Counted from the stretch's first letter, positions 5,836-36,071 are shown. The stretch: 64,000 nucleotides of DNA from Burkholderiales bacterium (GCA_036555615.1 DATBKZ010000034.1:84246-148245), one strand, 5' to 3'. Notes: generated by a model from the sequence alone, not told the origin. Made by a program: numbers and translations.

Positions 5836-6792
5836 GTGTCCGACATGATCCTTGCCCTGGCGATGATCGCGGGCGGCTTGCTCGCGCTCTATGGCGGCGC
5901 CCACGCGCTGATCCAGGGCGCCTCGGCGCTCGCGCGGCGCTGGGGCATGAGCCCGCTCGTGGTGGGTCTCACGGTCGTCGCCGGCGGCACCAGCTCGCCG
6001 GAGCTCTTTGTCGTCACGAGCGCGGCGCTGGAGGGGCGCGACGGGATCTCGCTGGGCAATATTCTGGGCGCGAACAGCCTCAATATCGGCTTGATACTCG
6101 GGCTGACAGCGCTGGTACGACCGCTGCACGCGCAGCTGCAGCTGATCCGCTTCGATGTGCCGATCATGATCCTCGCGACGCTGGTGGTAGCCGCCTTCCT
6201 GGCGGATGGCGATCTGGGCCGCGTGAAGGGGGCGGTCCTGATAGCGGCGCTCGCCGGCTACCTCGCCTTCACGGTTGTCATGGCGCGCCGCGAGCGCAGT
6301 GAACGCGTGCGGGAGGAATTCGCAGCGCAGATTCCGGGTCCGCGAGCGAGCCTCGCCGGCGACCTCGGAATGATCGTGCTTGGGCTGGCGGCCCTCGCGC
6401 TCGGCGCGCAGGGCCTGATCTCAGGGGCGGTGGCGGTTGCCGGTGCGATGGGCGTGCGCGACAGCGTGATCGGCATTACTGTGGTTGCCGCGGGAACCAC
6501 CATGCCGGAGCTCGTCACGTGCCTGGTCGCGGCGCTCAAGCGCGAAGCCGACATCGCTATCGGCAACATCGTGGGCTCCAACATCTTCAACCTGCTCGGC
6601 GTGCTCGGGCTTGCCGGCGTGCTCGCTCCGATCAGCGCGGCCGGCGTGATGCCCGCGGAGGTCTGGGGCGCCGTGGTGCTCGCCGCGCTGAGCCTGCCCG
6701 TCATGTGGCGCGGGATGATCGTGAACCGCGCGGAAGGCGCGCTGCTCGCTGCGGCCTATCTTGTCTATCTGGCGATTATCTGGTGCGGGTGA
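5836..6792 (+). CDS. CaCA-family sodium/calcium exchanger (YrbG type)
   Basis: Two alpha-repeat motifs (GTSSPELFV and GTTMPELVT) in a 10-TM, 318-aa protein. GTG 5836 or ATG 5845 could be the start. Confidence 0.85.
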   Translation: MSDMILALAMIAGGLLALYGGAHALIQGASALARRWGMSPLVVGLTVVAGGTSSPELFVVTSAALEGRDGISLGNILGANSLNIGLILGLTALVRPLHAQLQLIRFDVPIMILATLVVAAFLADGDLGRVKGAVLIAALAGYLAFTVVMARRERSERVREEFAAQIPGPRASLAGDLGMIVLGLAALALGAQGLISGAVAVAGAMGVRDSVIGITVVAAGTTMPELVTCLVAALKREADIAIGNIVGSNIFNLLGVLGLAGVLAPISAAGVMPAEVWGAVVLAALSLPVMWRGMIVNRAEGALLAAAYLVYLAIIWCG

Positions 6793-6920: not shown

Positions 6921-7406
6921 ATGAAAAACACGGCATACGCGTTGAGCTCGGCGGTTGTCCTGTTTGTCTTCTGGCTGCTGCTGTCCGGTTATTTCACGGT
7001 TTTTCTGGTCACGATGGGCGCGCTCTCCGCCGTCGCCATCGTGGCTCTCGGCCGCCGCATGGAGGTGATCGACCGCGAAGGCCATCCCATCGACATGGGC
7101 TGGCGCGTGCTCACCTACTGGCCGTGGCTCGTGAAGGAGATCGCCAAGAGCGCCTGGGACGTCGCGTGCATCATTGTCGATCCGCGGCTCCCCATCAGCC
7201 CGCGCCTCGTCCGGGCAAAGACCACGCAGAAGACCGCCGTCGGCGTGGTGACCTACGCGAACTCCATCACCCTCACGCCCGGGACGATCTCCGTTGACGT
7301 GCGGGAAGGCGAGATCCTCGTGCACGCGCTGACGCGCGAGAGCGCGGCCGGGGTGCTCGAGGGCGAGATGGACCGGCGCGTGACGCGCTTCGAGGGGCGG
7401 TCGTGA
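6921..7406 (+). CDS. mrpE: Mrp/Mnh/Pha antiporter subunit E (MbhA-like)
   Basis: ATG 6921 is preceded by GGAGG (6914-6918). LLSGYFT...VKEIAKSAWDVACIIV...ANSITLTPGTISVDV is the MnhE signature. Confidence 0.8.
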   Translation: MKNTAYALSSAVVLFVFWLLLSGYFTVFLVTMGALSAVAIVALGRRMEVIDREGHPIDMGWRVLTYWPWLVKEIAKSAWDVACIIVDPRLPISPRLVRAKTTQKTAVGVVTYANSITLTPGTISVDVREGEILVHALTRESAAGVLEGEMDRRVTRFEGRS

Positions 7407-7684
7407 TGTTCGAAGCTGCTGCGGCGGCGCTTCTCGTCACGCTCGCGCTGGCGCTCGCGCGCGCCGCCCTCGGCCCGACCGTGTTCGACCGCGCGCAAGC
7501 CGTCAATACGGTGGGCACCGTTGCGGTCCTGCTGCTCGCGGTCATTGGATTTCTCGGGGGGCGGCCCGAGTTCCTCGACCTCGCGATCGTCTACGGCTTT
7601 CTCAACCTGGTCGGCACGGTCGCGGTGCTCAAGTACTTCCGGTATGGGGGCCTCGGCGAGCCCGGCGAGGAGGAACCGAAGTGA
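7403..7684 (+). CDS. mrpF: Mrp antiporter subunit F (MbhB-like)
   Basis: 93-aa, 3-TM protein. Its GTG/ATG start overlaps the mrpE stop (GTGATG 7403-7408). LGPTVFDR...AVNTVGT is typical of MnhF. Confidence 0.8.
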   Translation: MMFEAAAAALLVTLALALARAALGPTVFDRAQAVNTVGTVAVLLLAVIGFLGGRPEFLDLAIVYGFLNLVGTVAVLKYFRYGGLGEPGEEEPK

Positions 7685-8013
7685 GCCTCGCGGTGGATAT
7701 CGCGAGCTGGCTGCTGCTCGCGACGGGCGGCATCTTTTGTGTGATCGGGGGCGTCGGCCTCATCCGCATGCCCGACTTCTACACCCGCGTGCATGCGGCA
7801 AGCGTCACCGACACGCTGGGCGCGGGGCTGATACTCATCGGGCTCATGCTGCAGGCGGGGCTTACCCTGGTGTGCGTCAAGCTCGTCATGATCGGTCTTC
7901 TGATTTTCTTCACCAGCCCGACCGCCACCCACGCGCTGACGCGCGCGGCGCTCACGCGCGGGCTCGAGCCGGTCCTGGCCGAGGAAGGGGAACTGCCATC
8001 GAAGCGATCCTGA
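7681..8013 (+). CDS. mrpG: Mrp antiporter subunit G (MbhC-like)
   Basis: GTG 7681 overlaps the mrpF stop. GGVGLIRMPDFYTRVHAASVTDTLG is the MnhG/PhaG motif. Confidence 0.85.
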   Translation: MSLAVDIASWLLLATGGIFCVIGGVGLIRMPDFYTRVHAASVTDTLGAGLILIGLMLQAGLTLVCVKLVMIGLLIFFTSPTATHALTRAALTRGLEPVLAEEGELPSKRS

Positions 8014-8543
8014 TCGCTGCGCTGCTCACGATGATGGCCGCCGCCGCGGTCGTGATCGTGGTGCAGCGCAATCTCTTCGCGGTGGTGATTCTAGCCGGCG
8101 CCTACAGCTTTCTGATGGCGATGGTGCTGGTTGCGCTCGATGCCCCGGATGTCGCGATGACCGAAGCCTCCGTGGGGGCGGGCATCTCGACCGTGCTGCT
8201 GCTCGGGGCGCTACACCTCGCGCAAGGCGTGGAAATGAAGCCGCTACGCCGCCCGTATCTTCCGCTCGCGGTGGCGGTGGCGACGGGGCTGGTGCTCGCA
8301 TACGGGACGCTCGGGCTGCCCGCCTACTACGATCCCCAGGCGCCGATACACACTCACGTCGTGCCGCGCTACCTACAGCAGGGAGCCGAGGAGACGGGCG
8401 TGCCCAACATCGTGACGGCGGTGCTGGCGAGCTACCGCGGTTATGACACGCTCGGCGAGACTGCCGTGGTGTTCACCGCGGGGGTGGGCGTGGTGGCGCT
8501 GCTCAGGCGGCTGCGCCGCCGCCGCGACGAGGAGGCACGGTGA
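8010..8543 (+). CDS. DUF4040/MbhD-E-like subunit fused to the N-terminal part of MrpB
   Basis: LDAPDVAMTEASVGAGIST (DUF4040) followed by NIVTAVLASYRGYDTLGETAVVF (MnhB motif). There is no ATG/GTG/TTG upstream of ATG 8031. CTG 8010 overlaps the mrpG stop as CTGA, like the NTGA junctions elsewhere in the cluster. The start is uncertain (8010 or 8031). Confidence 0.65.
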   Translation: MIAALLTMMAAAAVVIVVQRNLFAVVILAGAYSFLMAMVLVALDAPDVAMTEASVGAGISTVLLLGALHLAQGVEMKPLRRPYLPLAVAVATGLVLAYGTLGLPAYYDPQAPIHTHVVPRYLQQGAEETGVPNIVTAVLASYRGYDTLGETAVVFTAGVGVVALLRRLRRRRDEEAR

Positions 8544-8974
8544 GGGATTACCTGGTCCTGCGCGTCGTGGCGAAGATCCTGATCGCCTTCATGGTGTTGT
8601 TCGCGCTTTACGTCCAGTTTCACGGTGACTTCGGGCCGGGCGGAGGATTCCAGGCGGGCGTCATCTCGGCCGCGGGCATTATCTTCTACGGGATCATTTA
8701 TGGCCTGCCCGCGGCGCGCGCGGTCGTTCCCGAGTGGCTCGTGGAGACGATGCTCGCCGCAGGAGTGTTGCTCTACGCTCTGGTCGGCGTTGCCGGCATC
8801 ATCCTCGGCGGCAACTACCTCGACTACTTCGTGCTCGGGGCCGACCCGGTTGCGGGCCAGCATCGGGGCATCTTCTGGGTCGAGCTGGGAGTGCTGATCA
8901 CGGTGGCGGGCGTCATGCTCAAGATCTTTTACCTGTTCGCAGGGCGCGCGGGCGGGGAGGAGCCTCCCGCGTGA
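8540..8974 (+). CDS. mrpB: Mrp antiporter subunit B core (MbhF-like)
   Basis: GTG 8540 overlaps the upstream stop. The HGDFGPGGGFQAGVI motif is typical of the MnhB domain. Confidence 0.8.
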   Translation: MRDYLVLRVVAKILIAFMVLFALYVQFHGDFGPGGGFQAGVISAAGIIFYGIIYGLPAARAVVPEWLVETMLAAGVLLYALVGVAGIILGGNYLDYFVLGADPVAGQHRGIFWVELGVLITVAGVMLKIFYLFAGRAGGEEPPA

Positions 8975-9333
8975 CCCTCGTGACCTTTCTCAACCATTAC
9001 GGGTACTGGGCGACGATCTTCCTCGCGGTCACGGGCCTCTACATCGTGATCGCGCGCGGGAACCTCGTAAAGAAGCTCGTCGGGCTTTCCATCTTCCAGA
9101 CGTCGGTCTACCTGCTGTATATCGCGCCGGGCAAGCTGATCGGGGGCACCGCGCCGATCGTTGCGCCCGGCTTCCAGGTCTATTCCAATCCGCTCCCCCA
9201 TGTCCTGATTCTCACCGCCATCGTCGTCGGAATTGCGACGCTGGCGCTCGGGCTCGCGCTGGTGGTGCGCATCCGGGAAGCGTACGGCAGCATCGAGGAG
9301 GACGAGATCCTCGCCGCGGAGCGGAAAGACTGA
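8971..9333 (+). CDS. mrpC: Mrp antiporter subunit C (NuoK/MbhG-like)
   Basis: GTG 8971 overlaps the upstream stop. 120-aa, 3-TM protein with GLSIFQTSVYLLYI...NPLPHVLILTAIVVG. Confidence 0.85.
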   Translation: MTLVTFLNHYGYWATIFLAVTGLYIVIARGNLVKKLVGLSIFQTSVYLLYIAPGKLIGGTAPIVAPGFQVYSNPLPHVLILTAIVVGIATLALGLALVVRIREAYGSIEEDEILAAERKD

Positions 9334-9352
9334 TCCGGACCGCCGCCCCCGC

Positions 9353-10834
9353 GTGATTTCCAGCCACCTGCCGATACTGCTGGTCGTCGTGCCGCTGATC
9401 GCCGCGCCGGTGATGGTGATCCTGCGCAGCGGCACCGCCGCCTGGATCCTCGCCATCGCGGTTTCGTGGGCGGCGCTGACGATTGCCGGCGCGCTGTTCA
9501 CCCAGGTTGCCGCGGGCGGCCACGTCTCGTACTTCCTCGGGAGCTGGCCCGCGCCGTGGGGCATCGAGTACCGGATCGACCGCGCCAACGCCTATCTCGC
9601 GCTGCTGGTGGGAGTGGTAGCGGCAGTGGTGTCGGTCTACAGCCCGCGCAGCATACTCGCGGAGATCGAGCCCGGCCGGCGCTACCTGTTCTACACGATG
9701 TACGCCCTGTGCCTCGCGGGGCTGCTCGGCATATCCGTGACCGGAGATGCCTTCAACCTGTTCGTATTTCTCGAGATTTCCTCGCTTTCCTCGTACGTGC
9801 TGATCGCTCTGGGCCGCGACCGCCGCGCGCTGATGGCGGCCTACCAGTACCTGATCATGGGCACGATCGGCGCCACGTTCTACGTCATTGGCGTGGGGAT
9901 GCTGTACCTCGAGACGGGCACGCTCAACCTGGCCGACATGGCGGGGCGCCTGGCGGGCGTCAGCGAGCCGCGCGCGGTGCTTGCGGCCCTCGCGTTCATC
10001 ACGGTCGGCGTCTCGCTCAAGCTCGCGCTCTTTCCGCTGCACCTGTGGCTGCCCAACGCCTACGCCTACGCGCCTTCGGTCGTGACTGCATTTCTCGCCG
10101 CTACCGCGACCAAGGTTTCCGTCTACGTGCTGCTGCGCTATTACTATTCGGTTTTTGGCGGGGGCGCGGTGTTCCAGGCGCTGCCCATGGCGGAGATCCT
10201 GCTCGCGCTCTCGCTCGCGGCCATGTTCATCGCGTCGGCGATCGCGATCTTCCAGGACGATGTCAAGCGCATGTTCGCGTATTCGAGCGTCGCCCAGATC
10301 GGCTACATCACGCTCGGCGTCGCGCTCGCCTCCGCCACCGGGCTGACCGCCGGCTTGGTCCACGTGTTCAACCACGCGCTCACCAAGGGCGCGCTGTTTC
10401 TGCTGCTCGGCGGTGTCGCGCTGCGCGCGGGATCGATGCGCCTGGGGTCGCTCGGCGGCATCGGGCGCGTGATGCCGCTCACCTCCTTTGGCATCGTGCT
10501 GGGAGGGCTCAGCCTGATCGGCGTGCCGGCAACGGTCGGCTTCGTCAGCAAGTGGTACCTGGTGCAGGCCGCGCTCGAGGGCGGCTCGCTCGGGATTGCG
10601 TTCGCGGTGGTGGCAAGCTCGCTGCTGGCGCTAGTCTACGTCTGGCGCTTCGTGGAGGTGGCGTATTTCCGCGAGCCGGATGCCAAGGTAGTCGCGCTGC
10701 GCGAGGCGCCCCTGAGCATGCTCGCGCCGGCGTGGGCGCTCGTCGCCGCCTGCATCTATTTCGGGATCGATACCGATCTCACGCTGGGCGGCGCGGCCGC
10801 CGCCGCGGAGCAACTGCTGCTGGGTGCGAAATGA
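9353..10834 (+). CDS. Antiporter-like subunit 1 (MrpD/NuoN family proton-conducting membrane subunit)
   Basis: 493 aa, about 14 TM. Carries FVFLEISSLSSYVLIAL, WLPNAYAYAPSVVTAFLA and AYSSVAQIGY motifs of the NuoL/M/N-MrpA/D superfamily. GTG 9353. Confidence 0.85.
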   Translation: MISSHLPILLVVVPLIAAPVMVILRSGTAAWILAIAVSWAALTIAGALFTQVAAGGHVSYFLGSWPAPWGIEYRIDRANAYLALLVGVVAAVVSVYSPRSILAEIEPGRRYLFYTMYALCLAGLLGISVTGDAFNLFVFLEISSLSSYVLIALGRDRRALMAAYQYLIMGTIGATFYVIGVGMLYLETGTLNLADMAGRLAGVSEPRAVLAALAFITVGVSLKLALFPLHLWLPNAYAYAPSVVTAFLAATATKVSVYVLLRYYYSVFGGGAVFQALPMAEILLALSLAAMFIASAIAIFQDDVKRMFAYSSVAQIGYITLGVALASATGLTAGLVHVFNHALTKGALFLLLGGVALRAGSMRLGSLGGIGRVMPLTSFGIVLGGLSLIGVPATVGFVSKWYLVQAALEGGSLGIAFAVVASSLLALVYVWRFVEVAYFREPDAKVVALREAPLSMLAPAWALVAACIYFGIDTDLTLGGAAAAAEQLLLGAK

Positions 10835-12300
10835 CGCCGGAGGGCCTGATCCTTGGCGCGATTGCGGTCCCGCTCGCCGGCGCCGCACTGATCGCGGCGG
10901 CGCACCGCATGCCTGACCTGCGCGAGGGCGTGACGCTGGTGACGGCGGCGGCGCTGTTCCTATTGGTTGCCGGGCTCGCACCCGAGGTGCTCGCCGGCGG
11001 TCGGCCGGGAGTGCACGTGGCGACGGTGATGCCGGGCATCGATCTCGCGTTCCGGGTCGAGCCGCTCGGCATGCTGTTTGCGCTCGTTGCCTCCGGCCTG
11101 TGGATCGTCAATTCCCTCTACTCGATCGGCTACATGCGGGGCAACCGCGAGGCGCACCAGACGCGCTATTACGTGTGCTTCGCGGCCGCGCTCGCAAGCA
11201 CCATGGGCATCGCCTTCGCCGGCAACCTGTTCACCCTGTTCCTGTTCTACGAGGCGCTGACGCTCGTCACCTATCCCCTGGTGACCCATCACGGCACCCC
11301 GGAGGCGATACGTGCCGGGCGGCTCTATCTCGCGCTGCTGATCGGCAGCTCGATTGCGCTCCTGCTGGTGGCGATCGTGTGGACGTGGTCGATCGCCGGG
11401 ACCATCGAGTTCGCCCCCGGCGGCATACTCGGGGGCCATGCTCCCAACACCACGGTCGGGCTGCTGCTCGCGCTTTATGTTTTCGGCATCGGCAAAGCGG
11501 CGGTGATGCCGGTGCACCGGTGGCTCCCGGCGGCGATGGTTGCGCCGACCCCGGTGTCCGCCCTGCTGCACGCCGTTGCGGTGGTGAAAGCGGGCGTGTT
11601 CGCGGTGCTGAAGGTGGTGGTGTACGTGTTCGGCGTGGACGCGATTGCCGGATTGAAGAGCGTGGACTGGCTGCCCTTCATCTCGGGCTTCACGATCATC
11701 GCGGCCTCGGTCGTGGCGCTGCGCTCGGACAATCTCAAGCGCCGGCTCGCGTACTCGACCGTGAGCCAGCTTTCGTACGTCGTGCTCGCCGCGGCACTGT
11801 TGACGCCGCTCTCGGTGATCGGTGCCGCGCTCCATATCGCGACGCATGCGCTCGGGAAGATCACGCTGTTCTTCTGCGCTGGCGCGATCTACACCGCGGC
11901 GCACAAGACCGAGGTGAGCGAGCTCGACGGCATCGGCCGGCGCATGCCGTGGACGATGGCTGCGTTCACCGTGGGCGCGCTCTCGCTGATCGGGGTGCCG
12001 CCAGCGGCCGGCTTCGTCAGCAAGTGGTTCATCATCTCCGGCGCGCTGCAGGCGGGGCACCACGTTGCGGTGGCGGTCTTCGTCGCGAGCACCCTGCTCA
12101 ATGCTGCCTATTTCCTGCCGATCGTGCACGCCGCGTTCTTCCGGCGCGGCCCGGAAGGCCCGCATGCCGCCCACGGCGAGGCGCCGTGGCCCATGGTGGT
12201 GGCGCTGACGATCACCGCGGGAGCGACCCTGGGGCTATTCTTTGCCGCCGACCTGCCACTTGCGCTCGCGCGCCAGCTCGTGTCCGTTCCCGCGGGCTGA
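10831..12300 (+). CDS. Antiporter-like subunit 2 (MrpD/NuoM family)
   Basis: ATG 10831 overlaps the upstream stop (ATGA). Carries FLFYEALTLVTYPLV, HRWLPAAMVAPTPVSALLHAVAVVKAG and AYSTVSQLSY. Confidence 0.85.
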   Translation: MTPEGLILGAIAVPLAGAALIAAAHRMPDLREGVTLVTAAALFLLVAGLAPEVLAGGRPGVHVATVMPGIDLAFRVEPLGMLFALVASGLWIVNSLYSIGYMRGNREAHQTRYYVCFAAALASTMGIAFAGNLFTLFLFYEALTLVTYPLVTHHGTPEAIRAGRLYLALLIGSSIALLLVAIVWTWSIAGTIEFAPGGILGGHAPNTTVGLLLALYVFGIGKAAVMPVHRWLPAAMVAPTPVSALLHAVAVVKAGVFAVLKVVVYVFGVDAIAGLKSVDWLPFISGFTIIAASVVALRSDNLKRRLAYSTVSQLSYVVLAAALLTPLSVIGAALHIATHALGKITLFFCAGAIYTAAHKTEVSELDGIGRRMPWTMAAFTVGALSLIGVPPAAGFVSKWFIISGALQAGHHVAVAVFVASTLLNAAYFLPIVHAAFFRRGPEGPHAAHGEAPWPMVVALTITAGATLGLFFAADLPLALARQLVSVPAG

Positions 12301-12312
12301 CGGAGAACTGCC

Positions 12313-12564
12313 ATGCAGAACGACAAGCGCTTCTGGCTCGATGACCCGCGCAATGTGACCAAGCTCTTCCGCGGGTTGTGGGCGATCGGCGCCGGGCTCG
12401 TGCTGGCAGAGCTCTTCGTGCACCGCCACGAGGAACTTGCGTTCGCGGGGTGGTTCGCGTTCTACGCGGTTTTCGGATTCGTCGCCTGCGTTGCGCTGGT
12501 GCTGGCGGCCAAGGAAATCCTGCGCCGCCTGGTGAAGCGCCCCGAGGACTACTATGAGCGCTGA
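12313..12564 (+). CDS. Small 2-TM membrane protein embedded in the mrp-like cluster, no family recognised
   Basis: ATG 12313 with GGAGA at 12302-12306. 83 aa with two hydrophobic helices. Its 3' end overlaps the next gene by 11 nt. GC3-rich codons. Confidence 0.55.
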   Translation: MQNDKRFWLDDPRNVTKLFRGLWAIGAGLVLAELFVHRHEELAFAGWFAFYAVFGFVACVALVLAAKEILRRLVKRPEDYYER

Positions 12565-14245
12565 CGTCCCGATTGCGCTGCTGCCGGTTCTCGGGGCCGC
12601 GCTCGTGCCGCTTGTGCGTGGGCGGCTGCGGGTGGTGCTGTTGCTGGCGCTGCCGGCGGCCACGTTCGTCTGGCTCCTGCTGTTGCCCGAGGGAGAATTC
12701 GGGCAGTTCGAGCTCCTCGGGCAGACGCTCACCCTGATGCGGGTCGACCGCCTGAGCCTCCTTTTCGGCTACGTGTTCGTTCTCGCGCTTTTTCTCACGG
12801 CAATCTACGCGCTGCACGTGGAAGATACGACCCAGCACGTCGCGGCGTTGGTCTACGGCGGGGCCGCCCTGGGAGCGGTGTTCGCGGGCGATCTCCTGAC
12901 ACTGTTCGTCTGGTGGGAGCTCACCGCGGTCTCCTCGGTGCTGCTGATCTGGGCGCGCCGCACCGAGCGGGCGTATGGCGCTGGCATGCGCTACGTGGTC
13001 ATCCAGCTCGGCTCGGGCATGCTGCTCCTCGCCGGCGCCGCGCTCCACGTGACTGCCGGGGGCTCGCTTGCCTTCGGTCACATCGGCCTGGAGAGCGCGG
13101 GCGGCGCGCTGATGCTCGCGGCAATCGGCATCAAGTGTGCCTTTCCACTGCTGCACAACTGGCTGCAGGATGCGTATCCGGAGGCGACCGAAACCGGAAC
13201 GGTGGTGCTCTCCGCGTTCACCACCAAGCTCGGCATCTATGCGCTGGCGCGCGGGTTTCCCGGGACCGAGATGTTGATCTGGATCGGCGCGGCGATGACC
13301 GCGTTCCCGATCTTCTACGCAGTTATCGAGAATGACCTGCGGCGCGTGCTCGCCTACAGCGTCAACAACCAGCTGGGATTTATGGTGGTGGGCATCGGGC
13401 TTGGCACCGAAATGGCGGTCAACGGCGCGGTGGCGCACGCTTTCGCGGACATCCTGTTCAAGATGCTGCTCTTCATGTCCATGGGGGCGGTGCTGCTGCG
13501 CACCGGCACGGTCAATGGCACCGATCTGGGAGGGCTTTACAAATCCATGCCATGGACGACCGGCTTCTGCATCGTCGGTGCCGCTTCGATCTCGGCGTTC
13601 CCGCTCTTCAGCGGCTTCGTCACCAAATCGATGGTCATGTCGGCGGCGGCAAGCGAGGGCTACGTCTTCACGTGGCTGGTGCTGCTGTTTGCCTCCGCGG
13701 GGGTGTTTCATCACGCGGGCATCAAGATCCCGTACTTCGCGTTCTTCGCGCACGACTCGGGAATCCGCTGCCGGGAGGCGCCGCCTCACATGCTGATCGC
13801 GATGGCGTTGACGGCCGCCTTGTGCGTAGGTATCGGCAGCTTCCCTGCGGCGCTGTATGCATTGTTGCCGTATCCCGTGACCTATGTGCCCTACACGGCA
13901 TCGCACGTCCTCGACCAGCTGCAATTGCTCGTATTCTCCGCGCTCGCCTTTTCCGTGCTGATGCGCACCGGGATCTATCCGCCCGAGATGCGATCCGTCA
14001 ATCTCGATTTCGATTGGATCTACCGGGGCCTCGGCTGCGACCTGGTGCGCACCATGGCCGGAATCGTTTCCGCCTGGCTGGTCGCCGGCGGCGAAATGGC
14101 GCGCTTGTTCGCGGGCCGTTCGCTGACGGCGCTCAGGCGCCATCACGGGCCCGAAAGCGCGCTCGCCCGCACCTGGCCCACGGGCAGCATGGCGCTGTGG
14201 GTGATGATCCTATTGCTTGCTTACCTGCTGTTCTACTACTTGTGA
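12554..14245 (+). CDS. Antiporter-like subunit 3 (MrpA/MrpD family, 563 aa)
   Basis: Carries FVWWELTAVSSVLLIW, LHNWLQDAYPEATETGTVVLSAFTTK and AYSVNNQLGFM motifs, about 16 TM. Confidence 0.85.
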   Translation: MSADVPIALLPVLGAALVPLVRGRLRVVLLLALPAATFVWLLLLPEGEFGQFELLGQTLTLMRVDRLSLLFGYVFVLALFLTAIYALHVEDTTQHVAALVYGGAALGAVFAGDLLTLFVWWELTAVSSVLLIWARRTERAYGAGMRYVVIQLGSGMLLLAGAALHVTAGGSLAFGHIGLESAGGALMLAAIGIKCAFPLLHNWLQDAYPEATETGTVVLSAFTTKLGIYALARGFPGTEMLIWIGAAMTAFPIFYAVIENDLRRVLAYSVNNQLGFMVVGIGLGTEMAVNGAVAHAFADILFKMLLFMSMGAVLLRTGTVNGTDLGGLYKSMPWTTGFCIVGAASISAFPLFSGFVTKSMVMSAAASEGYVFTWLVLLFASAGVFHHAGIKIPYFAFFAHDSGIRCREAPPHMLIAMALTAALCVGIGSFPAALYALLPYPVTYVPYTASHVLDQLQLLVFSALAFSVLMRTGIYPPEMRSVNLDFDWIYRGLGCDLVRTMAGIVSAWLVAGGEMARLFAGRSLTALRRHHGPESALARTWPTGSMALWVMILLLAYLLFYYL

Positions 14246-28490: not shown

Positions 28491-29471
28491 CTAGTAAACA
28501 CGGTTGCGCGCAGCCTCGCCCTTGACGAGGACACGCTCGACGTTGAACCACGCTTCGCGGAACAGCATGGCGGATGACTGGCGCGTGACGCCCGCGATGT
28601 GCGGTGTGAAGAGCACCCGGCGCGCCGCCTCGCCCTCGAGCGCGAACAGGGGATTGCCGGGGTCGGGCGGCTCCGTGGCATAGACATCGATTGCGGCGCC
28701 GCCCAGGCGGCCCGACCTGAGATGCGCAACAAGCGCTTCCTCGTTCACGATGCCGCCGCGAGCGGCCTGGATCAGCACCGCTCCCGGCTTCATCAACGCG
28801 AACTGCCGCGGGCCGATCATGCTGCGGGTCTGCGGCAGGAGCGGAACGTGCAGGGTGATGACGTCGGCCGTCCGGAGCAGCTCATCGAGCGGCACTGCGC
28901 GCGCGGCAGTCCGCGCAGCAGCCTGGGGATCGCGCGGGGCAGGGTCGTAATAGACGATCTGGCAGCCAAAGCGGTGAAATGCCTCGGCCACCGCGGCGCC
29001 AACGGTGCCGAAGCCCACGACGCCCACGGTGAGCCCCTCGAGTCCCGGCAGGTTGTCGGTGATCATGCGCCCACGGAACGAGACGTAGTTTGCGTTCCGG
29101 ATTTCCGCATCCGCCCAGGCGAGGCGGCGCAGCAGGAGAAGAGCGCTTGCCACGGCGTACTCGGCCACCGCGCTGTTGCTGCCGCCGGGGACGTTCGCGA
29201 CCGCGATGCCGAGCTTCTTCATCGCGGCCTCATCGAGCCGGTCGACGCCGGCGCCGGTCACCTGGACGAGCTTGACGCCACCGCCCTCGAAGAGTGAGCC
29301 GGCCAGCTTCGGGCCGACAGCCGGAATCACCAGCGCGCGCACCGACCTGACGTGCGCAGCGAGTTGCGGGTCGTCGACGGCGCGATAGTTGACGGCGAGC
29401 GTGACGGGCGGCGTGATGCCTGCGCGCTGAAAATCGGCCAGCGGCCGCAGGCAGAGAACGTCGTGTGGCAT
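28491..29471 (-). CDS. D-isomer-specific 2-hydroxyacid dehydrogenase family protein
   Basis: GVVGFGTVGAAVAEAF NAD loop and QAARGGIVNEEAL...AIDVYATEP...TPHIAGVT. The ATG at 29471 shares one base with the cupin stop. Confidence 0.85.
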   Translation of the reverse strand: MPHDVLCLRPLADFQRAGITPPVTLAVNYRAVDDPQLAAHVRSVRALVIPAVGPKLAGSLFEGGGVKLVQVTGAGVDRLDEAAMKKLGIAVANVPGGSNSAVAEYAVASALLLLRRLAWADAEIRNANYVSFRGRMITDNLPGLEGLTVGVVGFGTVGAAVAEAFHRFGCQIVYYDPAPRDPQAAARTAARAVPLDELLRTADVITLHVPLLPQTRSMIGPRQFALMKPGAVLIQAARGGIVNEEALVAHLRSGRLGGAAIDVYATEPPDPGNPLFALEGEAARRVLFTPHIAGVTRQSSAMLFREAWFNVERVLVKGEAARNRVY

Positions 29472-29851
29472 CAGAGCGCTGGGGGTGGTTCCTGGGTCCG
29501 CTTCGTGATGTCGCCAACCGGAAAGAAGCACAGCAACACCAGCGGTTCCTGGCCGGTATTGCGGGTCATGTGCTTTTCTCCCGGCGGAATCAGGATCGTG
29601 TCGCCGGCCTTCAGCGGGAAGCTCCCGCTGTCGGCCTCGGTGCAGCCTTCGCCTGCCATCACGTAGATGCATTCCTCGAAGCCCTGGTGGTAGTGCGGGC
29701 GGCGCGCTGTGTCGCCGGGCTTCGGCACGGGAATCTCGACCAGCCGCAGCGTCACGGCGCGCGAGCCTTTCTCGCCGGACACGATCTCGAGCGATTTCCG
29801 GCCGGGCAGGCCCATGCTCTTCGCCTGCGCCTGCGTCAGCACCTTCGCCAT
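29471..29851 (-). CDS. Cupin-domain protein (126 aa)
   Basis: Both cupin motifs are present: PHYHQGFEECIYVMAGEG and GDTILIPPGEKHMTRN. The ATG at 29851 shares one base with the upstream stop. Confidence 0.8.
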   Translation of the reverse strand: MAKVLTQAQAKSMGLPGRKSLEIVSGEKGSRAVTLRLVEIPVPKPGDTARRPHYHQGFEECIYVMAGEGCTEADSGSFPLKAGDTILIPPGEKHMTRNTGQEPLVLLCFFPVGDITKRTQEPPPAL

Positions 29852-30654
29852 CAGCCAGCCACCTTCAGGTGCTTGATTTCGGCGGTGCCGCCCTGCGCCT
29901 CGTCGAGCAGGCGGAAGATCTCCGCCGCCTCCTTCGCAATCGCACCGGCGATGCCGTCGAGCATCGTCTTCGCCTTGTCCACGGTCGCGTGCTCGGGCGT
30001 GCCGTACCAGCCGGTCGGCGCGATGGTGCGGATGTCGCGCAGCACCGGCTGGAAGGCGCGCGTGCGCCGCAGCTTGTCCCACTTGCGGCCATGCGAGTGG
30101 TCGGAGGAATAATCGATGCGATCGAGGTGGACGAGGTCCGGCCGGCAGGCGAGCACGGCGAGCGCTTCGATCTCGCCACCGTGCGTGAGTCCCCCGTAGT
30201 CCTTGCCGAACAGCTCCGCCGCGACGTAGCACGCCTGGACGGTCAATACCGTCATGCCGTGGTCGCGGTGCAGGTGCTCGGCAGCGATCGCGAGCGAGGG
30301 GATGTTGCCCTCGTGCCAGTTGAGCAGCAGGAGATACTTCGCGCCGTGCCTGGCCGCCGACACGCAGGTTTCCGTCACCACGCGCTGATAGGTATCGGGA
30401 GTGAGCGTGAGGGTGGCCTCGAACGGCATGTGCATGGGCGTGACGCCAAGCGGCCCGCCCGGCAGCACCAGTGCGTCCATGCGCTCGGCCACTGCATGGG
30501 AAATGACGTTGGCCGCGAGGATGTCGGTGCCGGCCGGCAGATGCGGGCCATGCTGCTCGACGCTGCCCGCGGGGAGGATCACCAGCGGGTTCTTCTTCAG
30601 TTGCGCGGCGATCTCGGGCTGCGTGAGATCGATGAGGTGGCGTGTCGGAAGCAT
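29851..30654 (-). CDS. Creatininase-family amidohydrolase
   Basis: LVILPAGSVEQHGPHLPAGTD and LLLLNWHEGN motifs are typical of the creatininase/MftE/ArfB family. 267 aa. Confidence 0.85.
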   Translation of the reverse strand: MLPTRHLIDLTQPEIAAQLKKNPLVILPAGSVEQHGPHLPAGTDILAANVISHAVAERMDALVLPGGPLGVTPMHMPFEATLTLTPDTYQRVVTETCVSAARHGAKYLLLLNWHEGNIPSLAIAAEHLHRDHGMTVLTVQACYVAAELFGKDYGGLTHGGEIEALAVLACRPDLVHLDRIDYSSDHSHGRKWDKLRRTRAFQPVLRDIRTIAPTGWYGTPEHATVDKAKTMLDGIAGAIAKEAAEIFRLLDEAQGGTAEIKHLKVAG

Positions 30655-30657
30655 GGC

Positions 30658-31746
30658 CTAGGCCGCGCGCGCTTGGGCGCGGATGCGCGATCGCGTCTCT
30701 TCCATGACGTCCGCAATGCGCACGCACTGCCCCTTGCGATCGATGGATCGCAACGCCGCGTACACCACCGCCACTGCGACGTTGCCGTTATGCGCGGTGA
30801 GCTCGCCGGGCTTGCCGGTCGCGCAGCTCGCGGCGAACATTTCCAGCTCGGCGCGGAACATGTCGCTTTCGGGCAAGGGGATCGCTTCCCGCTTCGCCCA
30901 GCCGTCCTTTCCACGCTGGATGTAGAGGGTGGATGCCTTGTGCAAGAGATGCGGCGTATCCCAGGTGCCGAAATCGATCTCGTAATGCATGAGACCTTTC
31001 GAGCCGAATACCCGCACCGCGAAGATGCCGGGGGACGTCCAGCACGAGCCGACGTAGCCGATCTTGCCGTCGGCAAACCTGAGCAGCGTCATCGACTGGT
31101 CGTCCACTTCCGCGCCCACCGGTGAGAGCTTGGACGCCATCGAGGAGACCTCGGCGATCTCGCCTCCCAGCAGGTGCAGCACGTCGAACTGGTGGATCGC
31201 GAGCTGGGAGAGCGGCCCGCCGGGGGCGCGGTCCTTATACCAGCGCCAGGTCTGCGGCGTAAGCTCCAGCGCGCGCTCGTTGGAGAAATTGGCTTCCATG
31301 AATGCCACGCGCCCCAGCTCCCCGGCGTCGATCCGGTCCTTGATGATGCGGATGCCCGCCATCAGCCGCGCGCTGTGGCCGACGGTGACGGTGACGCCGT
31401 ACTGCTGTTCCAGCGCGGCGATCTTCAAGCCGTCTTCAAGCGTCTGGGCGATCGGTTTCTCGGTGTAGACGTGCTTGCCCGCACGGGCGACCATTTCCGC
31501 CATCGGCAGATGCTGCTCGTTGGGCACTGTGAGGATGACGCCCTTCAGTTCCGGATTGGAAAGCATGGACTTCATGTCGGGGACCGCCGGCACGCCCATT
31601 TCCATCTCGAACGCCACGCGCCTGTCCGCCGAGCGGCTGTAGGCGGCAACGATCTTCAGCTCGTCGGATTGCTGTGCGGCGCGGGCGAGGACCTTGGCCC
31701 ACCGGCCGAGACCGACGATCCCGAGTTTGACTGGTGTGCTGCTCAT
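30658..31746 (-). CDS. Gfo/Idh/MocA-family oxidoreductase
   Basis: VKLGIVGLGRWAKVLA Rossmann N-terminus and EKPIAQTLEDGLK motif. 362 aa. Confidence 0.85.
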   Translation of the reverse strand: MSSTPVKLGIVGLGRWAKVLARAAQQSDELKIVAAYSRSADRRVAFEMEMGVPAVPDMKSMLSNPELKGVILTVPNEQHLPMAEMVARAGKHVYTEKPIAQTLEDGLKIAALEQQYGVTVTVGHSARLMAGIRIIKDRIDAGELGRVAFMEANFSNERALELTPQTWRWYKDRAPGGPLSQLAIHQFDVLHLLGGEIAEVSSMASKLSPVGAEVDDQSMTLLRFADGKIGYVGSCWTSPGIFAVRVFGSKGLMHYEIDFGTWDTPHLLHKASTLYIQRGKDGWAKREAIPLPESDMFRAELEMFAASCATGKPGELTAHNGNVAVAVVYAALRSIDRKGQCVRIADVMEETRSRIRAQARAA

Positions 31747-31838
31747 GGGAATCCCGTTGTCGCTGTGGATGACCCGCGATTCTACAACGCACGCAGTTGC
31801 CGCGCGCGCCGGTCCGCACTGCGGACCCGGGCCTCATC

Positions 31839-33014
31839 TTACCCGAGCCTGCGCATCATCCACGGCAGCAGCACGTTCTCGGCGATCGCTCCGCTTGGCC
31901 AGTCGGGGGAGCGGCCCATATGGCCGCCCTGCGGGTTGACCCACGCGTCCTTGGCGGTGCCGTGTTCGAGCAACACATACAGATCGGCAATGGGAATCTG
32001 CGAGTCGCGCGCGCCATTGACGGCGAGCACGGGCGCCGAAGAGCGATCGAGCAGGCCGGCATCGATGAGCGAGAAGCGCCGCGCGCGCACGAGCATGTCC
32101 TCGAGATTGCGCGCGCCCAGCATCGCGCACTTCGCGTGCAGGTAGTCGTAGAGATACTCGCCGGTGGCGAGCGAAGCGCGCAGCCAGTCGGGCTGAAAAT
32201 AATGGTGGATCGGCCCGCCGTGCACGATCGACCCGCGCAGCCGCTCGCGCTCGGTGATCGCGAGCTTGGCGGCCCAATAGCCGCTCCAGCTGCGGCCTTG
32301 CACCACGATTCGCCCTGTAGCCACCTCGGGACGCCGGCCCAGATAGTCGAGCGCCGCGGTGAAAATGCGGTCGCTGTCGACCGCCGCCACCGCGTGGGGC
32401 GACTCGCCGGTGCCGGGAAGGTCGATCGCGAACAGCCCAAGGCCTCGCCGCAGGTAGCTGTCCGTATGCGCGGCGACGTCTTCCTTCCTGGAATCGAGTC
32501 CGGCGATGCCGAATACGAGCGGAGCAGGGCGCGCGAGGGGAGGCAGGCGCAGGTAGGCGACAATTTCTCCGCCCTCGAATGGAACCCGGACCGTGTCGAT
32601 GGGCGGATCGAGCAGGCGCGCGTGGGCGCGGAACGCTTCCAGCGCGCGTCGGCGGGCGTGCTGTCGCGCCGGTGTGTTTTCCGTAGGCCAGCGCGCAAAG
32701 TGATAGAGGCGCCAAGCCTTCCAGTAGCGGTCCCTCGCGCCGCCGCGATCCGTCGCCTCGAGCGTCCGGGCCTCGGCCCAGTGGCGATCGGCGGCGCTGC
32801 TCCAGGCGCGCGCCCACTCTTCGCGCTCCAGGCCGTGAATCGTTGACAGCGCGGCCCGCGCGTCCTCCGGCGCGATGCCGCTGAGCGGCGGCAGGCCGTG
32901 ATCGGCGCGCCGCTGGACTTCCTGCTTGAGTGCTTGCAGGTCGCGGCCCCCGCCCGTAACGAGGCAGATATCATCGGCCGTTCGACGGATCAATGTCACT
33001 CCACAAAAAAGCAA
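31839..33014 (-). CDS. Alpha/beta hydrolase, FrsA-like (DUF1100-type)
   Basis: VQGRSWSGYW nucleophile-elbow context (GxSxG as G-R-S-W-S-G). Overall layout resembles FrsA-like esterases. The start is uncertain (TTG 33014, GTG 32999 or TTG 32993). Confidence 0.7.
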   Translation of the reverse strand: MLFCGVTLIRRTADDICLVTGGGRDLQALKQEVQRRADHGLPPLSGIAPEDARAALSTIHGLEREEWARAWSSAADRHWAEARTLEATDRGGARDRYWKAWRLYHFARWPTENTPARQHARRRALEAFRAHARLLDPPIDTVRVPFEGGEIVAYLRLPPLARPAPLVFGIAGLDSRKEDVAAHTDSYLRRGLGLFAIDLPGTGESPHAVAAVDSDRIFTAALDYLGRRPEVATGRIVVQGRSWSGYWAAKLAITERERLRGSIVHGGPIHHYFQPDWLRASLATGEYLYDYLHAKCAMLGARNLEDMLVRARRFSLIDAGLLDRSSAPVLAVNGARDSQIPIADLYVLLEHGTAKDAWVNPQGGHMGRSPDWPSGAIAENVLLPWMMRRLG

Positions 33015-33074
33015 GGGCGGCCTTGGCCGCCCTTGGTTGCCGATCAGCGGTTACTGATCTCCGGTCGCGCGCCC

Positions 33075-34055
33075 CTAGTTGGCCGTCAACCCGAGCGATT
33101 TCACCAGCTTCTCGTTTGTGACCATCGATTCCTGCACCACTTTCCGGAACTCCGCCGGCCCCAGAACGACGATCTCCGTGGCCTGGATCGCCATCCCTTT
33201 CCTGACTGCGGGCGTAGCCATGGCTTTCACCACTGCGGCGCGCAGCCTGTCATTGACGGCCTTGGGCGTGCCCTTCGGCAGGAAGAAACCCATCCAGCCG
33301 CTGTAGTCGAAGCCCGGTATGGTGTCCGAGATCGGCGGAATGCCGGGCAGCAGCGCGGTGGGCTTGGGCAGCGTCTGGGCGATGGCGCGCATGCGCTTGG
33401 CGTTGACGTGGACCATCGCCGCCGGCGCGGGAATGAGCGTCCACTGGGATTCGTTGGCCACCACGGACGCGCTCGACGGACCGCCGCCCTTGTACGGGAC
33501 GTGCAGCGAATTGATGCCGGCCTGCTGCTGGAAGTACGCCCCCGCGAGATGGCTCTGCGAGCCGGCGCCGGCGGAGGCCATGTTGAATGGGGTCTTTCCG
33601 CTCTTGGCGTAATCGATCAATTCCTTCGTGGACTTGATCGGGAGCGTGGGATTCACCACCAGCACGTTGAGCGTCAATGCATATTGCGCAACGTAGTCGT
33701 AGTCATTGACGGGATGGAAGCGGGCCTTCTTCTGCAGCAGCCTGGCAATCGTGCTCGCCGCCGTCGTCGCGCTGATCAGCGTGTAGCCGTCGGGATTCGC
33801 GTCCTTGGCGATTTCCATGCCGATGATGCCGCCCGCGCCAGCGCGGTTGTCGATGACGATCTGCTGGCCGATCGTGTGGCCCAGCTCGTTGGCGACGATG
33901 CGGCTCAAGGTGTCGACCGCGCTGCCCGCCGTATTCGGCACGATCAGGCGTATCGGCCGGCTGGGATAACTTTTCGCGGATTCCTGCGCAACGGCCGGCG
34001 CAGCGCCGAGCAGTGTCGAAGCAATGGTCAGCGTAAGCCAGACCCGGATCTTCAT
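33075..34055 (-). CDS. Bug-family (TctC-like) substrate-binding protein
   Basis: Signal peptide MKIRVWLTLTIASTLLGAAPAVAQ, then YPSRPIRLIVPNTAGSAVDTLSR...DNRAGAGGIIG...PDGYTLI. Confidence 0.9.
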   Translation of the reverse strand: MKIRVWLTLTIASTLLGAAPAVAQESAKSYPSRPIRLIVPNTAGSAVDTLSRIVANELGHTIGQQIVIDNRAGAGGIIGMEIAKDANPDGYTLISATTAASTIARLLQKKARFHPVNDYDYVAQYALTLNVLVVNPTLPIKSTKELIDYAKSGKTPFNMASAGAGSQSHLAGAYFQQQAGINSLHVPYKGGGPSSASVVANESQWTLIPAPAAMVHVNAKRMRAIAQTLPKPTALLPGIPPISDTIPGFDYSGWMGFFLPKGTPKAVNDRLRAAVVKAMATPAVRKGMAIQATEIVVLGPAEFRKVVQESMVTNEKLVKSLGLTAN

Positions 34056-34238
34056 GAATTTTCTCCCTATCTGATGGTGCAGGCGTGAAACCGATGCGAT
34101 GTGGAATTGCGGACCTCATTCTGTCCGGTTTGCCCAGAGAACGCAACTTGCGCCCGCGCGTCGCCGCTTGCGAGACCGGCATCCGGGAACTCCGGTGGAA
34201 TCGCGCTTTCTGACTGATACCCATTACAATTCCCGACC

Positions 34239-35141
34239 ATGCTGCGCAGATTCCTCCTCCTTGCCGGTGCGGGCATCGTCGCCGCGTGCAGCCTCGCTCC
34301 GGCAGACTACAACGGCGACAGTGCGCCGCGTGAGGCGGCAATCGAGCCGCTGAGCTCGGAGCGTCCGCTTGTCGCGCTCGCCCTGGGCAGTGGCGGCGCG
34401 CGCGGCTTCGCCCACATCGGTGTCATCAAGGCGCTGGAGCAGGCCGGCATTGCGCCCGATATCGTCACCGGGGCGAGCTCGGGCGCCGTGGTCGGGGCGC
34501 TCTACGCCGCGGGCTGGAAGGCGGCCGAGCTGGAGGAGATCGCGCTCGGCCTCGAGCAGGGCGAGATCGTGGACTTCGCGCTGTTCGGCAACGGCTGGGT
34601 CAAAGGGGAGGCGCTGCAGAATTTCGTCAACCGGCTGGTCGGCGGGCGGCCGATCGAGCGGCTTGCCAGGCCCTTCGCCGTGGTTGCCACCGAGGCGAAG
34701 AGCCGGCGCATCACGGTTTTCAACCGCGGCGATACCGGCCTTGCCGTGCGCGCCTCGGCGAGCGTCCCCAACGTCTTCATCCCGCCTGTCATCAATGGCG
34801 CGGAGTACGTGGACGGCGGGCTCCTGAGCCCGGTGCCGGTCAAGCTCGCGCGCGCGATGGGCGCGGACATCGTCGTCGCGGTTGACGTTTCCTGGTTCGC
34901 CCAGACGCGCGACCCCTCGGATCCCGGTATGAGGCAATATGACCGCAGCGGACGCTATGCGCTGCTCGAGGGCGAGCTCGAGCAGGCCGACGTCGTCATC
35001 GTGCCGCGCACGGTGCGCACGCGCATGCTCGATTTCGACCAGCGCGAGTCGAACATCGCGGCCGGGGCCGTAGCGGGTCGCGAGGCCGTGCCCCAATTGC
35101 GGGAGGCCATCGCGCGGACCGCGACGACCAAGCGGCGCTGA
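34239..35141 (+). CDS. Patatin-like phospholipase lipoprotein (RssA-like)
   Basis: Lipobox LLAGAGIVAAC. GSGGARGFAHIGV oxyanion motif, GASSGA nucleophile and DGG motif (YVDGGLLSPVP). Confidence 0.85.
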   Translation: MLRRFLLLAGAGIVAACSLAPADYNGDSAPREAAIEPLSSERPLVALALGSGGARGFAHIGVIKALEQAGIAPDIVTGASSGAVVGALYAAGWKAAELEEIALGLEQGEIVDFALFGNGWVKGEALQNFVNRLVGGRPIERLARPFAVVATEAKSRRITVFNRGDTGLAVRASASVPNVFIPPVINGAEYVDGGLLSPVPVKLARAMGADIVVAVDVSWFAQTRDPSDPGMRQYDRSGRYALLEGELEQADVVIVPRTVRTRMLDFDQRESNIAAGAVAGREAVPQLREAIARTATTKRR

Positions 35142-35153
35142 TCGCGTCCGCCA

Positions 35154-36071
35154 TCATTCCACTGTCTGCGCCGGTGCCGGAGCAGACCGGGTGCGCGGAA
35201 CGCGCGCCAGATCCCAGTTTTCCAGTGCCCAGCTCCAGAGTTCCCTCACCGTTGCGTGCGCGAGCCCGCGCGGCGGCTGCTGTCCGAGAAACGACAGCGC
35301 AGCAGCGAGGGCAGGCTGCGGCCGCGCCGTGTTTACCGGCTGGGCCAGCGTCTGCTTGGAGAGTTTCTCGCCCTGGGAATTGACCGCGACCGGCAGATGG
35401 ACGTAGCGGGGGCGGGGCAAGCCGAGAAGTTGCTGGATGTAGATCTGCCGCGGCGTGGATGCGAGCAGATCCGCTCCGCGCACGACGTCGGTGATGCCCT
35501 GCTCGGCATCGTCCACTGCCACGGCGAGCTGGTAGGTGTACGTGCCGTCCGGGCGATAGAGCACGAAATCACCCGACTCTTTCTCCAGCTCGCAGGCGAT
35601 CGTGCCCTGCACCGCATCCTCGAATGCGACAGCCGCGCCCCGCGTGTCGAGCCGCAGCGCCCGCGCAGTCTTGTTTCCCGCGATGCCGCTGCGGCAGGTT
35701 CCCGGATAGACCGGTCCTTCCGTGCCGGCGACGGCGGAGTCGGCGATCTCCCGGCGGCTGCATGCGCAGGGATAGACGCGGCGGGTCTCCCGCAAACGGT
35801 GCAGGGCGCAGTGGTAGGCGTCGTGCCGCGTGCTCTGATACGCAACCGGCCCGTCGCCTTCCAAGCCGAAGGCCGCGAGCGTGCGCAGGATTTCGTCGGC
35901 CGCGCCCGCTGCCACGCGCGGGGAATCGATGTCTTCCATCCGCACGAGCCACTCGCCGCCGCGCGTTCTTGCCTCGAGAAAGCCGCCGACCGCCGCGACG
36001 AGCGAGCCGAAATGAAGCGGCCCGGTGGGAGAGGGCGCGAAGCGGCCGCGGTACTTGCCATCCTCCGTCAC
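35154..36071 (-). CDS. gluQ: tRNA glutamyl-Q(34) synthetase
   Basis: YRGRFAPSPTGPLHFGS (HIGH-like), CACSRRE...YPGTC zinc-site context and EKLSKQ (KMSKS-like). About 305 aa, truncated GluRS architecture. GTG 36071. Confidence 0.9.
   Translation of the reverse strand: MTEDGKYRGRFAPSPTGPLHFGSLVAAVGGFLEARTRGGEWLVRMEDIDSPRVAAGAADEILRTLAAFGLEGDGPVAYQSTRHDAYHCALHRLRETRRVYPCACSRREIADSAVAGTEGPVYPGTCRSGIAGNKTARALRLDTRGAAVAFEDAVQGTIACELEKESGDFVLYRPDGTYTYQLAVAVDDAEQGITDVVRGADLLASTPRQIYIQQLLGLPRPRYVHLPVAVNSQGEKLSKQTLAQPVNTARPQPALAAALSFLGQQPPRGLAHATVRELWSWALENWDLARVPRTRSAPAPAQTVE

Follow-up and report, generated by a model that had tools for sequence, protein, structure and literature searches.

What is encoded by an operon that carries homologues of Mrp antiporter subunits in the gene order of a membrane-bound hydrogenase (MBH) and then continues with two further antiporter-like subunits? 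Such an operon of ten genes lies at positions 6921-14245, on the + strand, of a 64,000-nucleotide stretch of DNA from a Burkholderiales bacterium (GCA_036555615.1, DATBKZ010000034.1:84246-148245), and this whole stretch is called the window below. The ion-pumping arms of complex I and of membrane-bound hydrogenases are considered to descend from Mrp. An earlier note, made from the sequence of the window, had left two readings side by side: a stand-alone cation/proton antiporter, or the membrane arm for a peripheral module encoded elsewhere. The first proved to be the better of the two, as we found no redox partner and no conserved neighbour. We consider it likely that the ten genes together encode one stand-alone complex of the Mrp (CPA3) family, group 3, most likely a Na+ (possibly K+ or Li+)/H+ antiporter that is driven by the proton motive force (PMF) and has three proton channels.

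The ten open reading frames (ORFs), obtained from an ORF list with a filter on G+C content at third codon positions (GC3), had GC3 values of 0.85-0.89 in a window of about 67% G+C. Families were assigned with Pfam and NCBIfam profile searches, which placed nine of the ten genes, x83 being the exception. The genes are the following (lengths in amino acids, aa; TM, transmembrane):

6921..7406, + strand: mrpE-like, 161 aa; Pfam MNHE, 104.9 bits; a GGAGG stands 4 nt before ATG 6921.
7406..7684 (alternative start GTG 7403), + strand: mrpF-like, 92 aa; Pfam MrpF_PhaF, 55.3 bits.
7681..8013, + strand: mrpG-like, 110 aa; Pfam PhaG_MnhG_YufB, 92.9 bits; TIGR01300, 83.7 bits (cut-off 63.1).
7998..8543, + strand: A^C, MbhD fused to MbhE (DUF4040), the MrpA C-domain in a gene of its own, 177-181 aa; Pfam MbhD, 61.2 bits, and MbhE, 46.5 bits; NF009159, 181.6 bits (cut-off 141).
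8540..8974, + strand: mrpB-like, 144 aa; Pfam MnhB, 87.4 bits; NF009162, 174.1 bits (cut-off 120).
8971..9333, + strand: mrpC/NuoK-like, 120 aa; Pfam Oxidored_q2, 70.3 bits; NF005624, 127.7 bits (cut-off 95).
9353..10834, + strand: D1, antiporter-like subunit of MrpD/MbhH type, 493 aa; Proton_antipo_M.
10831..12300, + strand: D2, the next antiporter-like subunit, 489 aa, an orthologue of the green complex I subunit MrpD1; Proton_antipo_M and Proton_antipo_N.
12313..12564, + strand: x83, conserved two-TM protein, 83 aa; no match in Pfam or NCBIfam.
12554..14245, + strand: D3, distal subunit of MrpA-N/NuoL type, 563 aa; Proton_antipo_M; NF009310 equivalog, 699.6 bits (cut-off 564).

The homologues of Mrp B, C, D, E, F and G are thus co-encoded in a single same-strand operon with overlapping genes, as in group 3 Mrp, and D3 exceeds the curated whole-protein cut-off of NF009310 (PRK12668), the equivalog for "Na(+)/H(+) antiporter subunit D". 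The earlier note had described the Mbh-type order MrpE-F-G, MbhD+MbhE-like, MrpB, MrpC, D1, followed by D2, x83 and D3, and this description was correct: all ten ORFs are present on the + strand and their order recurs in related loci. Its statement that nearly every junction is an NTGA overlap was slightly overstated, since six of the nine junctions are 4-nt overlaps of this kind and the others comprise one 11-nt overlap and two gaps of 12 and 19 nt. Two of the six depend on the start codon adopted: the mrpE/mrpF overlap is 4 nt only with GTG 7403 (1 nt with the adopted ATG 7406), and another requires CTG 8010 as the start of A^C. A promoter scan gave no sigma-70-like site upstream of mrpE, and a terminator scan gave matches within the genes at background level only.

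We then surveyed the gene order by tblastn of all ten proteins against 80 related loci, judging order wherever the contig or flank reaches far enough. The order E-F-G-A^C-B-C-D1-D2-x83-D3 was kept without exception in all related loci with enough flank, spanning alpha-, beta- and gammaproteobacteria, Acidobacteriota, Myxococcota, Binatia and Planctomycetota; the ten-gene arrangement is therefore not a chance one. D3 has more than 584 relatives in the set of species-representative genomes, and clustering its family at 50% identity gives no fewer than 150 clusters with scores above 320 bits. Of 401 Pseudomonadota genomes drawn evenly, 27 (about 7%), from 23 of 212 genera, had a match to NF009310 above its cut-off. 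The D3 family extends further to Desulfobacteraceae and Peptococcaceae, where the NCBI name is again "Na(+)/H(+) antiporter subunit D". One Pseudomonadota genome (G102) had three separate genes of the NF009310 class on three contigs, so that multiple cassettes or operons can occur in a single genome. When all flanking ORFs were clustered, no family occurred in more than 12 of about 60 loci and no redox subunit was conserved beside the orthologous clusters, which makes the operon a self-contained unit.

These surroundings bear directly on the rival reading, in which the cluster would serve, as in MBH, MBS or complex I, as the membrane arm of a redox or respiratory complex whose peripheral module is encoded elsewhere. 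The gene order copies MbhA-H, the best matches of MrpF (MbhB), A^C (MbhD/E) and D1 (MbsH/MbhH) are to MBH and MBS chains, and the D2-x83-D3 cassette does serve a redox complex elsewhere (green complex I, discussed below). However, no conserved neighbour was present in about 60 loci, there is no NuoH/MbhM-like gene in the operon, and no MbhI-like connecting subunit is encoded in it or adjoining it. Over about 7 kb upstream of the operon and about 9 kb downstream of it, genes for hydrogenase, Nuo or ferredoxin proteins were likewise absent, as the earlier note had said of its vicinity.

The rest of the genome was searched for a docking partner. Its nine PF00361 genes include the three of this operon, three that share a contig with a NuoH-like gene (a contig taken as complex I), two in a six-gene Hyf/Hyc-like cluster on another contig, and one at a contig end. 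The Hyf/Hyc-like cluster would be a point in favour of a redox partner elsewhere, but the only two NuoH-like genes of the genome are those of the complex I contig and of this cluster, and each sits with its own antiporter-like subunits, so that both already belong to self-contained complexes and the candidate partner was rejected. The nuo genes are on a different contig from the ten-gene operon. Together with a structural argument given below for D3, this leaves the idea of a module encoded elsewhere, which the earlier note had entertained, very improbable. The mrpE gene is the sole MNHE gene of the genome (95% complete), and the operon is hence the organism's sole Mrp system.

As a side observation, the Hyf/Hyc-like cluster lies on contig C6 at about 28600-36000 (L081 4603-11966, minus strand) and comprises genes for a 670-aa HyfB-like protein, a NuoH/HycD-like protein, a 218-aa protein without a Pfam match, a 483-aa HyfF-like protein, a 559-aa NuoC/NuoD-like fusion and a NuoB-like protein. 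The gene at the contig end (contig C122, 47571-48689) is another Proton_antipo_M gene (253.7 bits) and shows an in-frame TAG in one alignment.

We next focused on the three large subunits. The motifs that the earlier note had quoted from them, FLEISSLSSY, FYEALTLVTY and WWELTAVSSV, are present and belong to TM5. The best PDB matches of D1 were MbsH (222.6 bits), MbhH (205.9 bits) and MrpD (183.5 bits), and a maximum-likelihood tree placed it on the MrpD/NuoN side, i.e. as an MrpD/MbhH-like subunit. D2 and D3 scored lower against PDB chains, with mixed matches to MbhH, NuoL/ND5 and MrpA, and in the tree they grouped with their counterparts from green complex I. D3 was modelled with AlphaFold2 from 31 orthologues (predicted local distance difference test score, pLDDT, 79). 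Beyond a 14-helix core, the model has a further TM helix at residues 449-471, then a long helix of 44 residues (488-531) and, at the C-terminus, a TM helix spanning 543-562. The top Foldseek matches of this model were MrpA (7qru_A, 6z16_A) and NuoL chains, with about 620-650 aligned columns and TMq 0.76-0.79, compared with about 505 columns and TMq of about 0.70 for MrpD, NuoM and NdhD chains. Because of the lateral helix in the model and these best matches, D3 is predicted to be a subunit of the MrpA-N/NuoL type, complete with TM15, lateral helix and TM16 anchor.

It follows that MrpA is split rather than absent, since D3 is of the MrpA-N type and the MbhD/E-like gene supplies the C-domain. 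The earlier note was right that no fused MrpA is present, and none of its D-like genes turned out to be a full one; its picture of three D subunits and no canonical MrpA missed the division of MrpA between two genes. This also counts against the membrane-arm reading: in MBH the redox module stands where MrpA-N would be, and in the window D3 with its lateral helix occupies that position.

An alignment that included Escherichia coli NuoL/M/N, Staphylococcus aureus MnhA/D and Thermomicrobium roseum MrpA/D indicated that D1, D2 and D3 all retain Glu-TM5, Lys-TM7, Lys-TM8, the TM11 His/Lys and Lys-TM12. In particular, the residues are E141, K223, K254, H337/H341/K345 and K400 in D1; E141, K222, K253, H335/H339/K343 and K398 in D2; and E122, K194 (invariant), K225, H295, K303 and K358 in D3. 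All three large subunits thus look competent as proton channels.

For the small subunits, residues were read against those named for Bacillus pseudofirmus Mrp (PMC9568556). A^C aligns to MbhD/MbsD, MbhE/MbsE and MrpA residues 638-798, and keeps MrpA D678 (in "APD") and D776/E780 (in "DTLGE"). At the position of MrpA E687 it has a Gly, with a Glu four residues earlier (one helical turn, TM19), as in MbhD and MbsD. MrpB, whose best PDB match is B. pseudofirmus MrpB, keeps Phe41 and has Glu for D121 and Asp for H34. MrpF matched MbhB best among PDB chains (46 bits, vs 33 and 26 bits for the MrpF chains); it keeps Asp32, and an Asn (in "AVNTVG") aligns with B. pseudofirmus Asp38. This Asn is found in at least 95% of 42 orthologues, and the position is Asp in the MrpF of B. 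pseudofirmus and of Anoxybacillus flavithermus, in MbhB and in MbsB; Asp38 is reported to be functionally important for Na+ uptake. Judged by these alignments, the cation module follows Mbh/Mbs rather than Bacillus Mrp, and it carries one change specific to the family, at MrpF Asp38.

By analogy with the structures solved for Mrp, MBH and complex I, the stand-alone antiporter could then work as follows. MrpE, F, G, B and C together with the MbhD/E-like MrpA C-domain would form the cation-translocating module, flanked by a row of three proton-channel subunits: D1 (MrpD/MbhH-like) in the proximal position, then D2, and D3 (MrpA-N/NuoL-like) in the distal one. The C-terminal lateral helix of D3 and its anchor helix would clamp or brace this row, and x83 may act as an accessory subunit of the D2-D3 pair. 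In terms of genes, the operon may be seen as a core of Pyrococcus furiosus type, E-F-G-A^C-B-C-D1, with an added distal cassette, D2-x83-D3. The three antiporter-like subunits would admit protons from the periplasm, the charge movement would be relayed along the central Lys/Glu/His axis to the C/A^C/B/F/G module, and a cation taken up from the cytoplasm would be expelled there. A third channel might make the exchange more electrogenic and so aid export at low PMF or high pH.

In favour of an antiporter we count the apparent conservation of the cation-path residues equivalent to MrpA D678, D776 and E780 and to MrpB D121 (as Glu), and also the surroundings of the operon, namely a gene of the Na+/Ca2+ exchanger (CaCA) family directly upstream, both in the window and in L006, along with same-strand CPA, NfeD and SPFH genes. 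Several points weigh on the other side. MrpF Asp38, conserved and important in classical Mrp, reads as Asn here, and the strictly conserved MrpA Glu687 as Gly; with its Glu one helical turn earlier, the cation path may differ from that of Bacillus Mrp. We infer the ion, the direction and the stoichiometry, as we do the membrane order D1-D2-D3 and the position of x83. Nor does belonging to the family settle the substrate, since the group 1 Mrp of Thermomicrobium moves Ca2+ (PMC5703873).

The same stand-alone assembly might accordingly transport another cation, such as K+ or Ca2+, or it might draw on a Na+ gradient to extrude protons in the service of pH homeostasis. The change of MrpF Asp38 to Asn, the shifted TM19 Glu and the change of MrpB His34 to Asp would fit such a difference, but most of the remaining acidic residues of the cation path are kept. 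As to the ion, the Thermomicrobium Mrp is a Ca2+/H+ antiporter and Sinorhizobium meliloti Pha1 a K+/H+ system (PMC5703873); the exchanger gene directly upstream in the window and in L006 points the same way, although its adjacency is limited to close relatives. As to direction, uptake of Na+ with expulsion of H+ has been proposed for P. furiosus Mrp (PMC8415708); that system lacks, however, the MrpA-N-type "energy input" subunit present here, which fits PMF-driven export. We regard a different ion or direction as unlikely on balance, yet as the more serious of the competitors of PMF-driven Na+/H+ antiport.

The immediate neighbours upstream of the operon, on the same strand, are genes for a CPA-type Na+/H+ exchanger, NfeD, SPFH and the CaCA exchanger, and downstream are TRAP-transporter and amidase genes. 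The CaCA gene is at 5836-6792, directly upstream of mrpE, and has the same place in the nearest relative (L006 3168-4115, 78% identity); in another locus (L035), SPFH and NfeD genes adjoin the cluster instead. This ion-homeostasis neighbourhood (CaCA/SPFH/NfeD) is limited to close betaproteobacterial relatives.

A separate matter is where translation of A^C begins. Upstream of ATG 8031 its ORF offers neither ATG nor GTG nor TTG, and with 8031 as the start the first helix would be cut short. Among 54 orthologues, the codon in alignment with ATC 7998 was ATC in 25, ATA in 10, ATT in 1, ATG in 9 and GTG in 2, and a GGAGG-like (Shine-Dalgarno-like) motif precedes 7998 in the window and the corresponding position in many orthologues. 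Because of this codon pattern and the upstream motif, A^C probably starts at a conserved non-canonical Ile codon (ATC/ATA), ATC 7998, which gives a 16-nt overlap with the end of mrpG. CTG 8010 was considered as the start and found less likely, given that 7998 aligns with ATG or GTG in 11 orthologues and with ATC, ATA or ATT in 36 and has the Shine-Dalgarno-like motif upstream. Initiation at an Ile codon is possibly tied to translational coupling or to low stoichiometry.

The remaining gene, x83, gave 378 homologues, all named "hypothetical" or with only incidental names, and stood between D2 and D3 in every locus covering that stretch. Hydropathy indicates two TM segments, and its conserved motifs (W-x-D, N-V, GF..C, AK and R.EDYY) are common to an 84-aa ORF of green complex I. 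We came to this complex through a tblastn search of D3 against plasmids, which led to rhizobial megaplasmids. On plasmid pB of S. meliloti the genes are arranged as nuoJ-nuoK-[MrpD-family, 487 aa]-[hypothetical, 84 aa]-[Na+/H+ antiporter subunit D, 586 aa]-nuoM-nuoN-nuoA..G. As described in PMC9040806 and PMC7415380, two MrpD-like subunits stand in for NuoL in green complex I, and the second bears an amphipathic helix. In blastp comparisons with the S. meliloti proteins, D2 was 53% identical to the 487-aa subunit (450 bits), D3 49% identical to the 586-aa subunit (444 bits), and x83 34% identical to the 84-aa protein (E 1e-4), with matching size and place. D2 and D3 each formed a clade with the green complex I counterpart in the maximum-likelihood tree (Shimodaira-Hasegawa-like approximate likelihood-ratio test, SH-aLRT, 100).

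Green complex I and the window therefore have a homologous D2-x83-D3 string in the same order, with the same small ORF and a C-terminal amphipathic helix on the second large subunit. They differ in context, as the cassette of green complex I lies inside a nuo operon (nuoK/nuoM) with NuoA-N and a redox arm, whereas that of the window follows mrpC-D1. They also differ in the tail after the DxDWxY motif, which is 104 aa there vs 79 aa in the window D3. This difference agrees with what has been published on Candidatus (Ca.) Manganitrophus, where a 26-aa insert goes together with one additional pump subunit (PMC9040806), a point that we hold lightly. A natural fusion protein of 1090 aa (P0270), with a D2-like half of 47% identity, a D3-like half of 36% and no x83-like insert between them, argues that D2 and D3 adjoin in one complex. 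Among the D3-type proteins we also noted one of 728 aa (P0260) whose C-terminal extension, at about 240 aa, greatly exceeds that of the window D3.

The ten-gene form is probably where the NuoL-replacing cassette of green complex I came from, or else a sibling of that cassette. A wider idea, which we put forward tentatively and would back a little less readily than we would doubt, is that D2-x83-D3 is a portable pump-extension cassette with an obligatory, undescribed two-helix subunit, joined on the one hand to an Mrp core of Mbh/P. furiosus type and on the other to complex I (green complex I, Ca. Manganitrophus). In the Mrp setting its third channel would raise the H+/cation ratio, and the Asp38-to-Asn change of MrpF with the shifted TM19 Glu would mark a cation path distinct from the Bacillus type. 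A natural three-channel Mrp is useful for asking how the number of antiporter-like subunits sets the H+/cation stoichiometry, and four points seem worth keeping from this locus: the cassette common to green complex I, the unnamed x83, the Asp-to-Asn change in MrpF and the ATC/ATA start.

Finally, we compared the operon with known Mrp and related systems. The layout is not the classical mrpABCDEFG, as the earlier note had stated, but it is not new either: it falls under group 3 Mrp (PMC5703873, PMC8415708), is covered by curated NCBIfam equivalogs and occurs in about 7% of the Pseudomonadota genomes sampled. Group 3 comprises clusters of irregular order, with the cyanobacterial mrpCDCDEFGBB and the Aphanothece mrpCD1D2EFGAB as examples (Ito et al., PMC5703873), and has been defined as clusters that lack mrpA and carry at least one mrpD (Haja et al., PMC8415708). 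The window fits, having no full-length mrpA, an irregular order and three Proton_antipo_M genes of 489-563 aa. By the earlier note's account, its idea would have fallen if such clusters were a well-characterised Mrp subgroup with demonstrated ordinary Na+/H+ antiport; strictly, the ten-gene form itself is uncharacterised, and no paper on it or on x83 was found in the literature library searched. The operon is, in short, an ordinary intact member of a widespread, annotated and experimentally untouched group 3 subtype.

MBH, MBS and Mbx complexes differ from it in that their Mrp-like module is co-encoded with NuoH-like MbhM, MbhI and NuoB/C/D/I-like subunits, none of which the window operon contains. 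The cyanobacterial group 3 systems (Aphanothece; Synechocystis slr2006-slr2013; PMC5703873, PMC4390856) are similar in having several D genes and a short "MrpA/B", and their order C-D-..-D-E-F-G-A'-B is a rotation of the window's E-F-G-A'-B-C-D-..-D, a likeness that is one of published gene order; they have two large subunits vs three in the window. The Aphanothece system confers Na+ tolerance or complements Na+ sensitivity in E. coli, as cited in PMC5703873. NF009310 and MNHE were not above cut-off in a Synechococcus control genome, and the ten distant D3-family representatives (Desulfobacteraceae, Peptococcaceae or unnamed) included no cyanobacterial sequence.

The classical group 1/2 Mrp complexes (B. 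pseudofirmus, A. flavithermus, Dietzia; 7qru, 6z16, 7d3u) have counterparts in the window for all their parts, A-N (D3), A-C, B, C, D (D1), E, F and G, and the Glu/Lys/His proton-channel residues and the DTLGE motif (D776/E780) are kept. Unlike them, the window has the MrpA N-domain with lateral helix (12554-14245) and the C-domain (7998-8543) as separate genes 4 kb apart, an extra antiporter-like D2, the two-TM x83 and an Mbh-like order, as well as Asn for MrpF Asp38 and Gly at the Glu687 position with a Glu four residues earlier.

Among the closest arrangements is that of the group 3 Mrp of P. furiosus, mrpEFGBB'CD (PF1147-53), for which deletion data point to Na+-coupled H+ movement (PMC8415708). 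Its E-F-G, fused MbhD+MbhE-like "MrpB", MrpB', MrpC and MrpD/MbhH-like genes correspond to the first seven genes of the window, in both cases without a fused MrpA and without a redox module; this likeness is one of published gene order, and the small subunits of the window were matched to MBH and MBS chains of the PDB. The P. furiosus system has one antiporter-like subunit and no "energy-input" module, whereas the window, which is bacterial and mesophilic, adds D2-x83-D3 and with it regains a subunit of the MrpA-N/NuoL type that carries a lateral helix.

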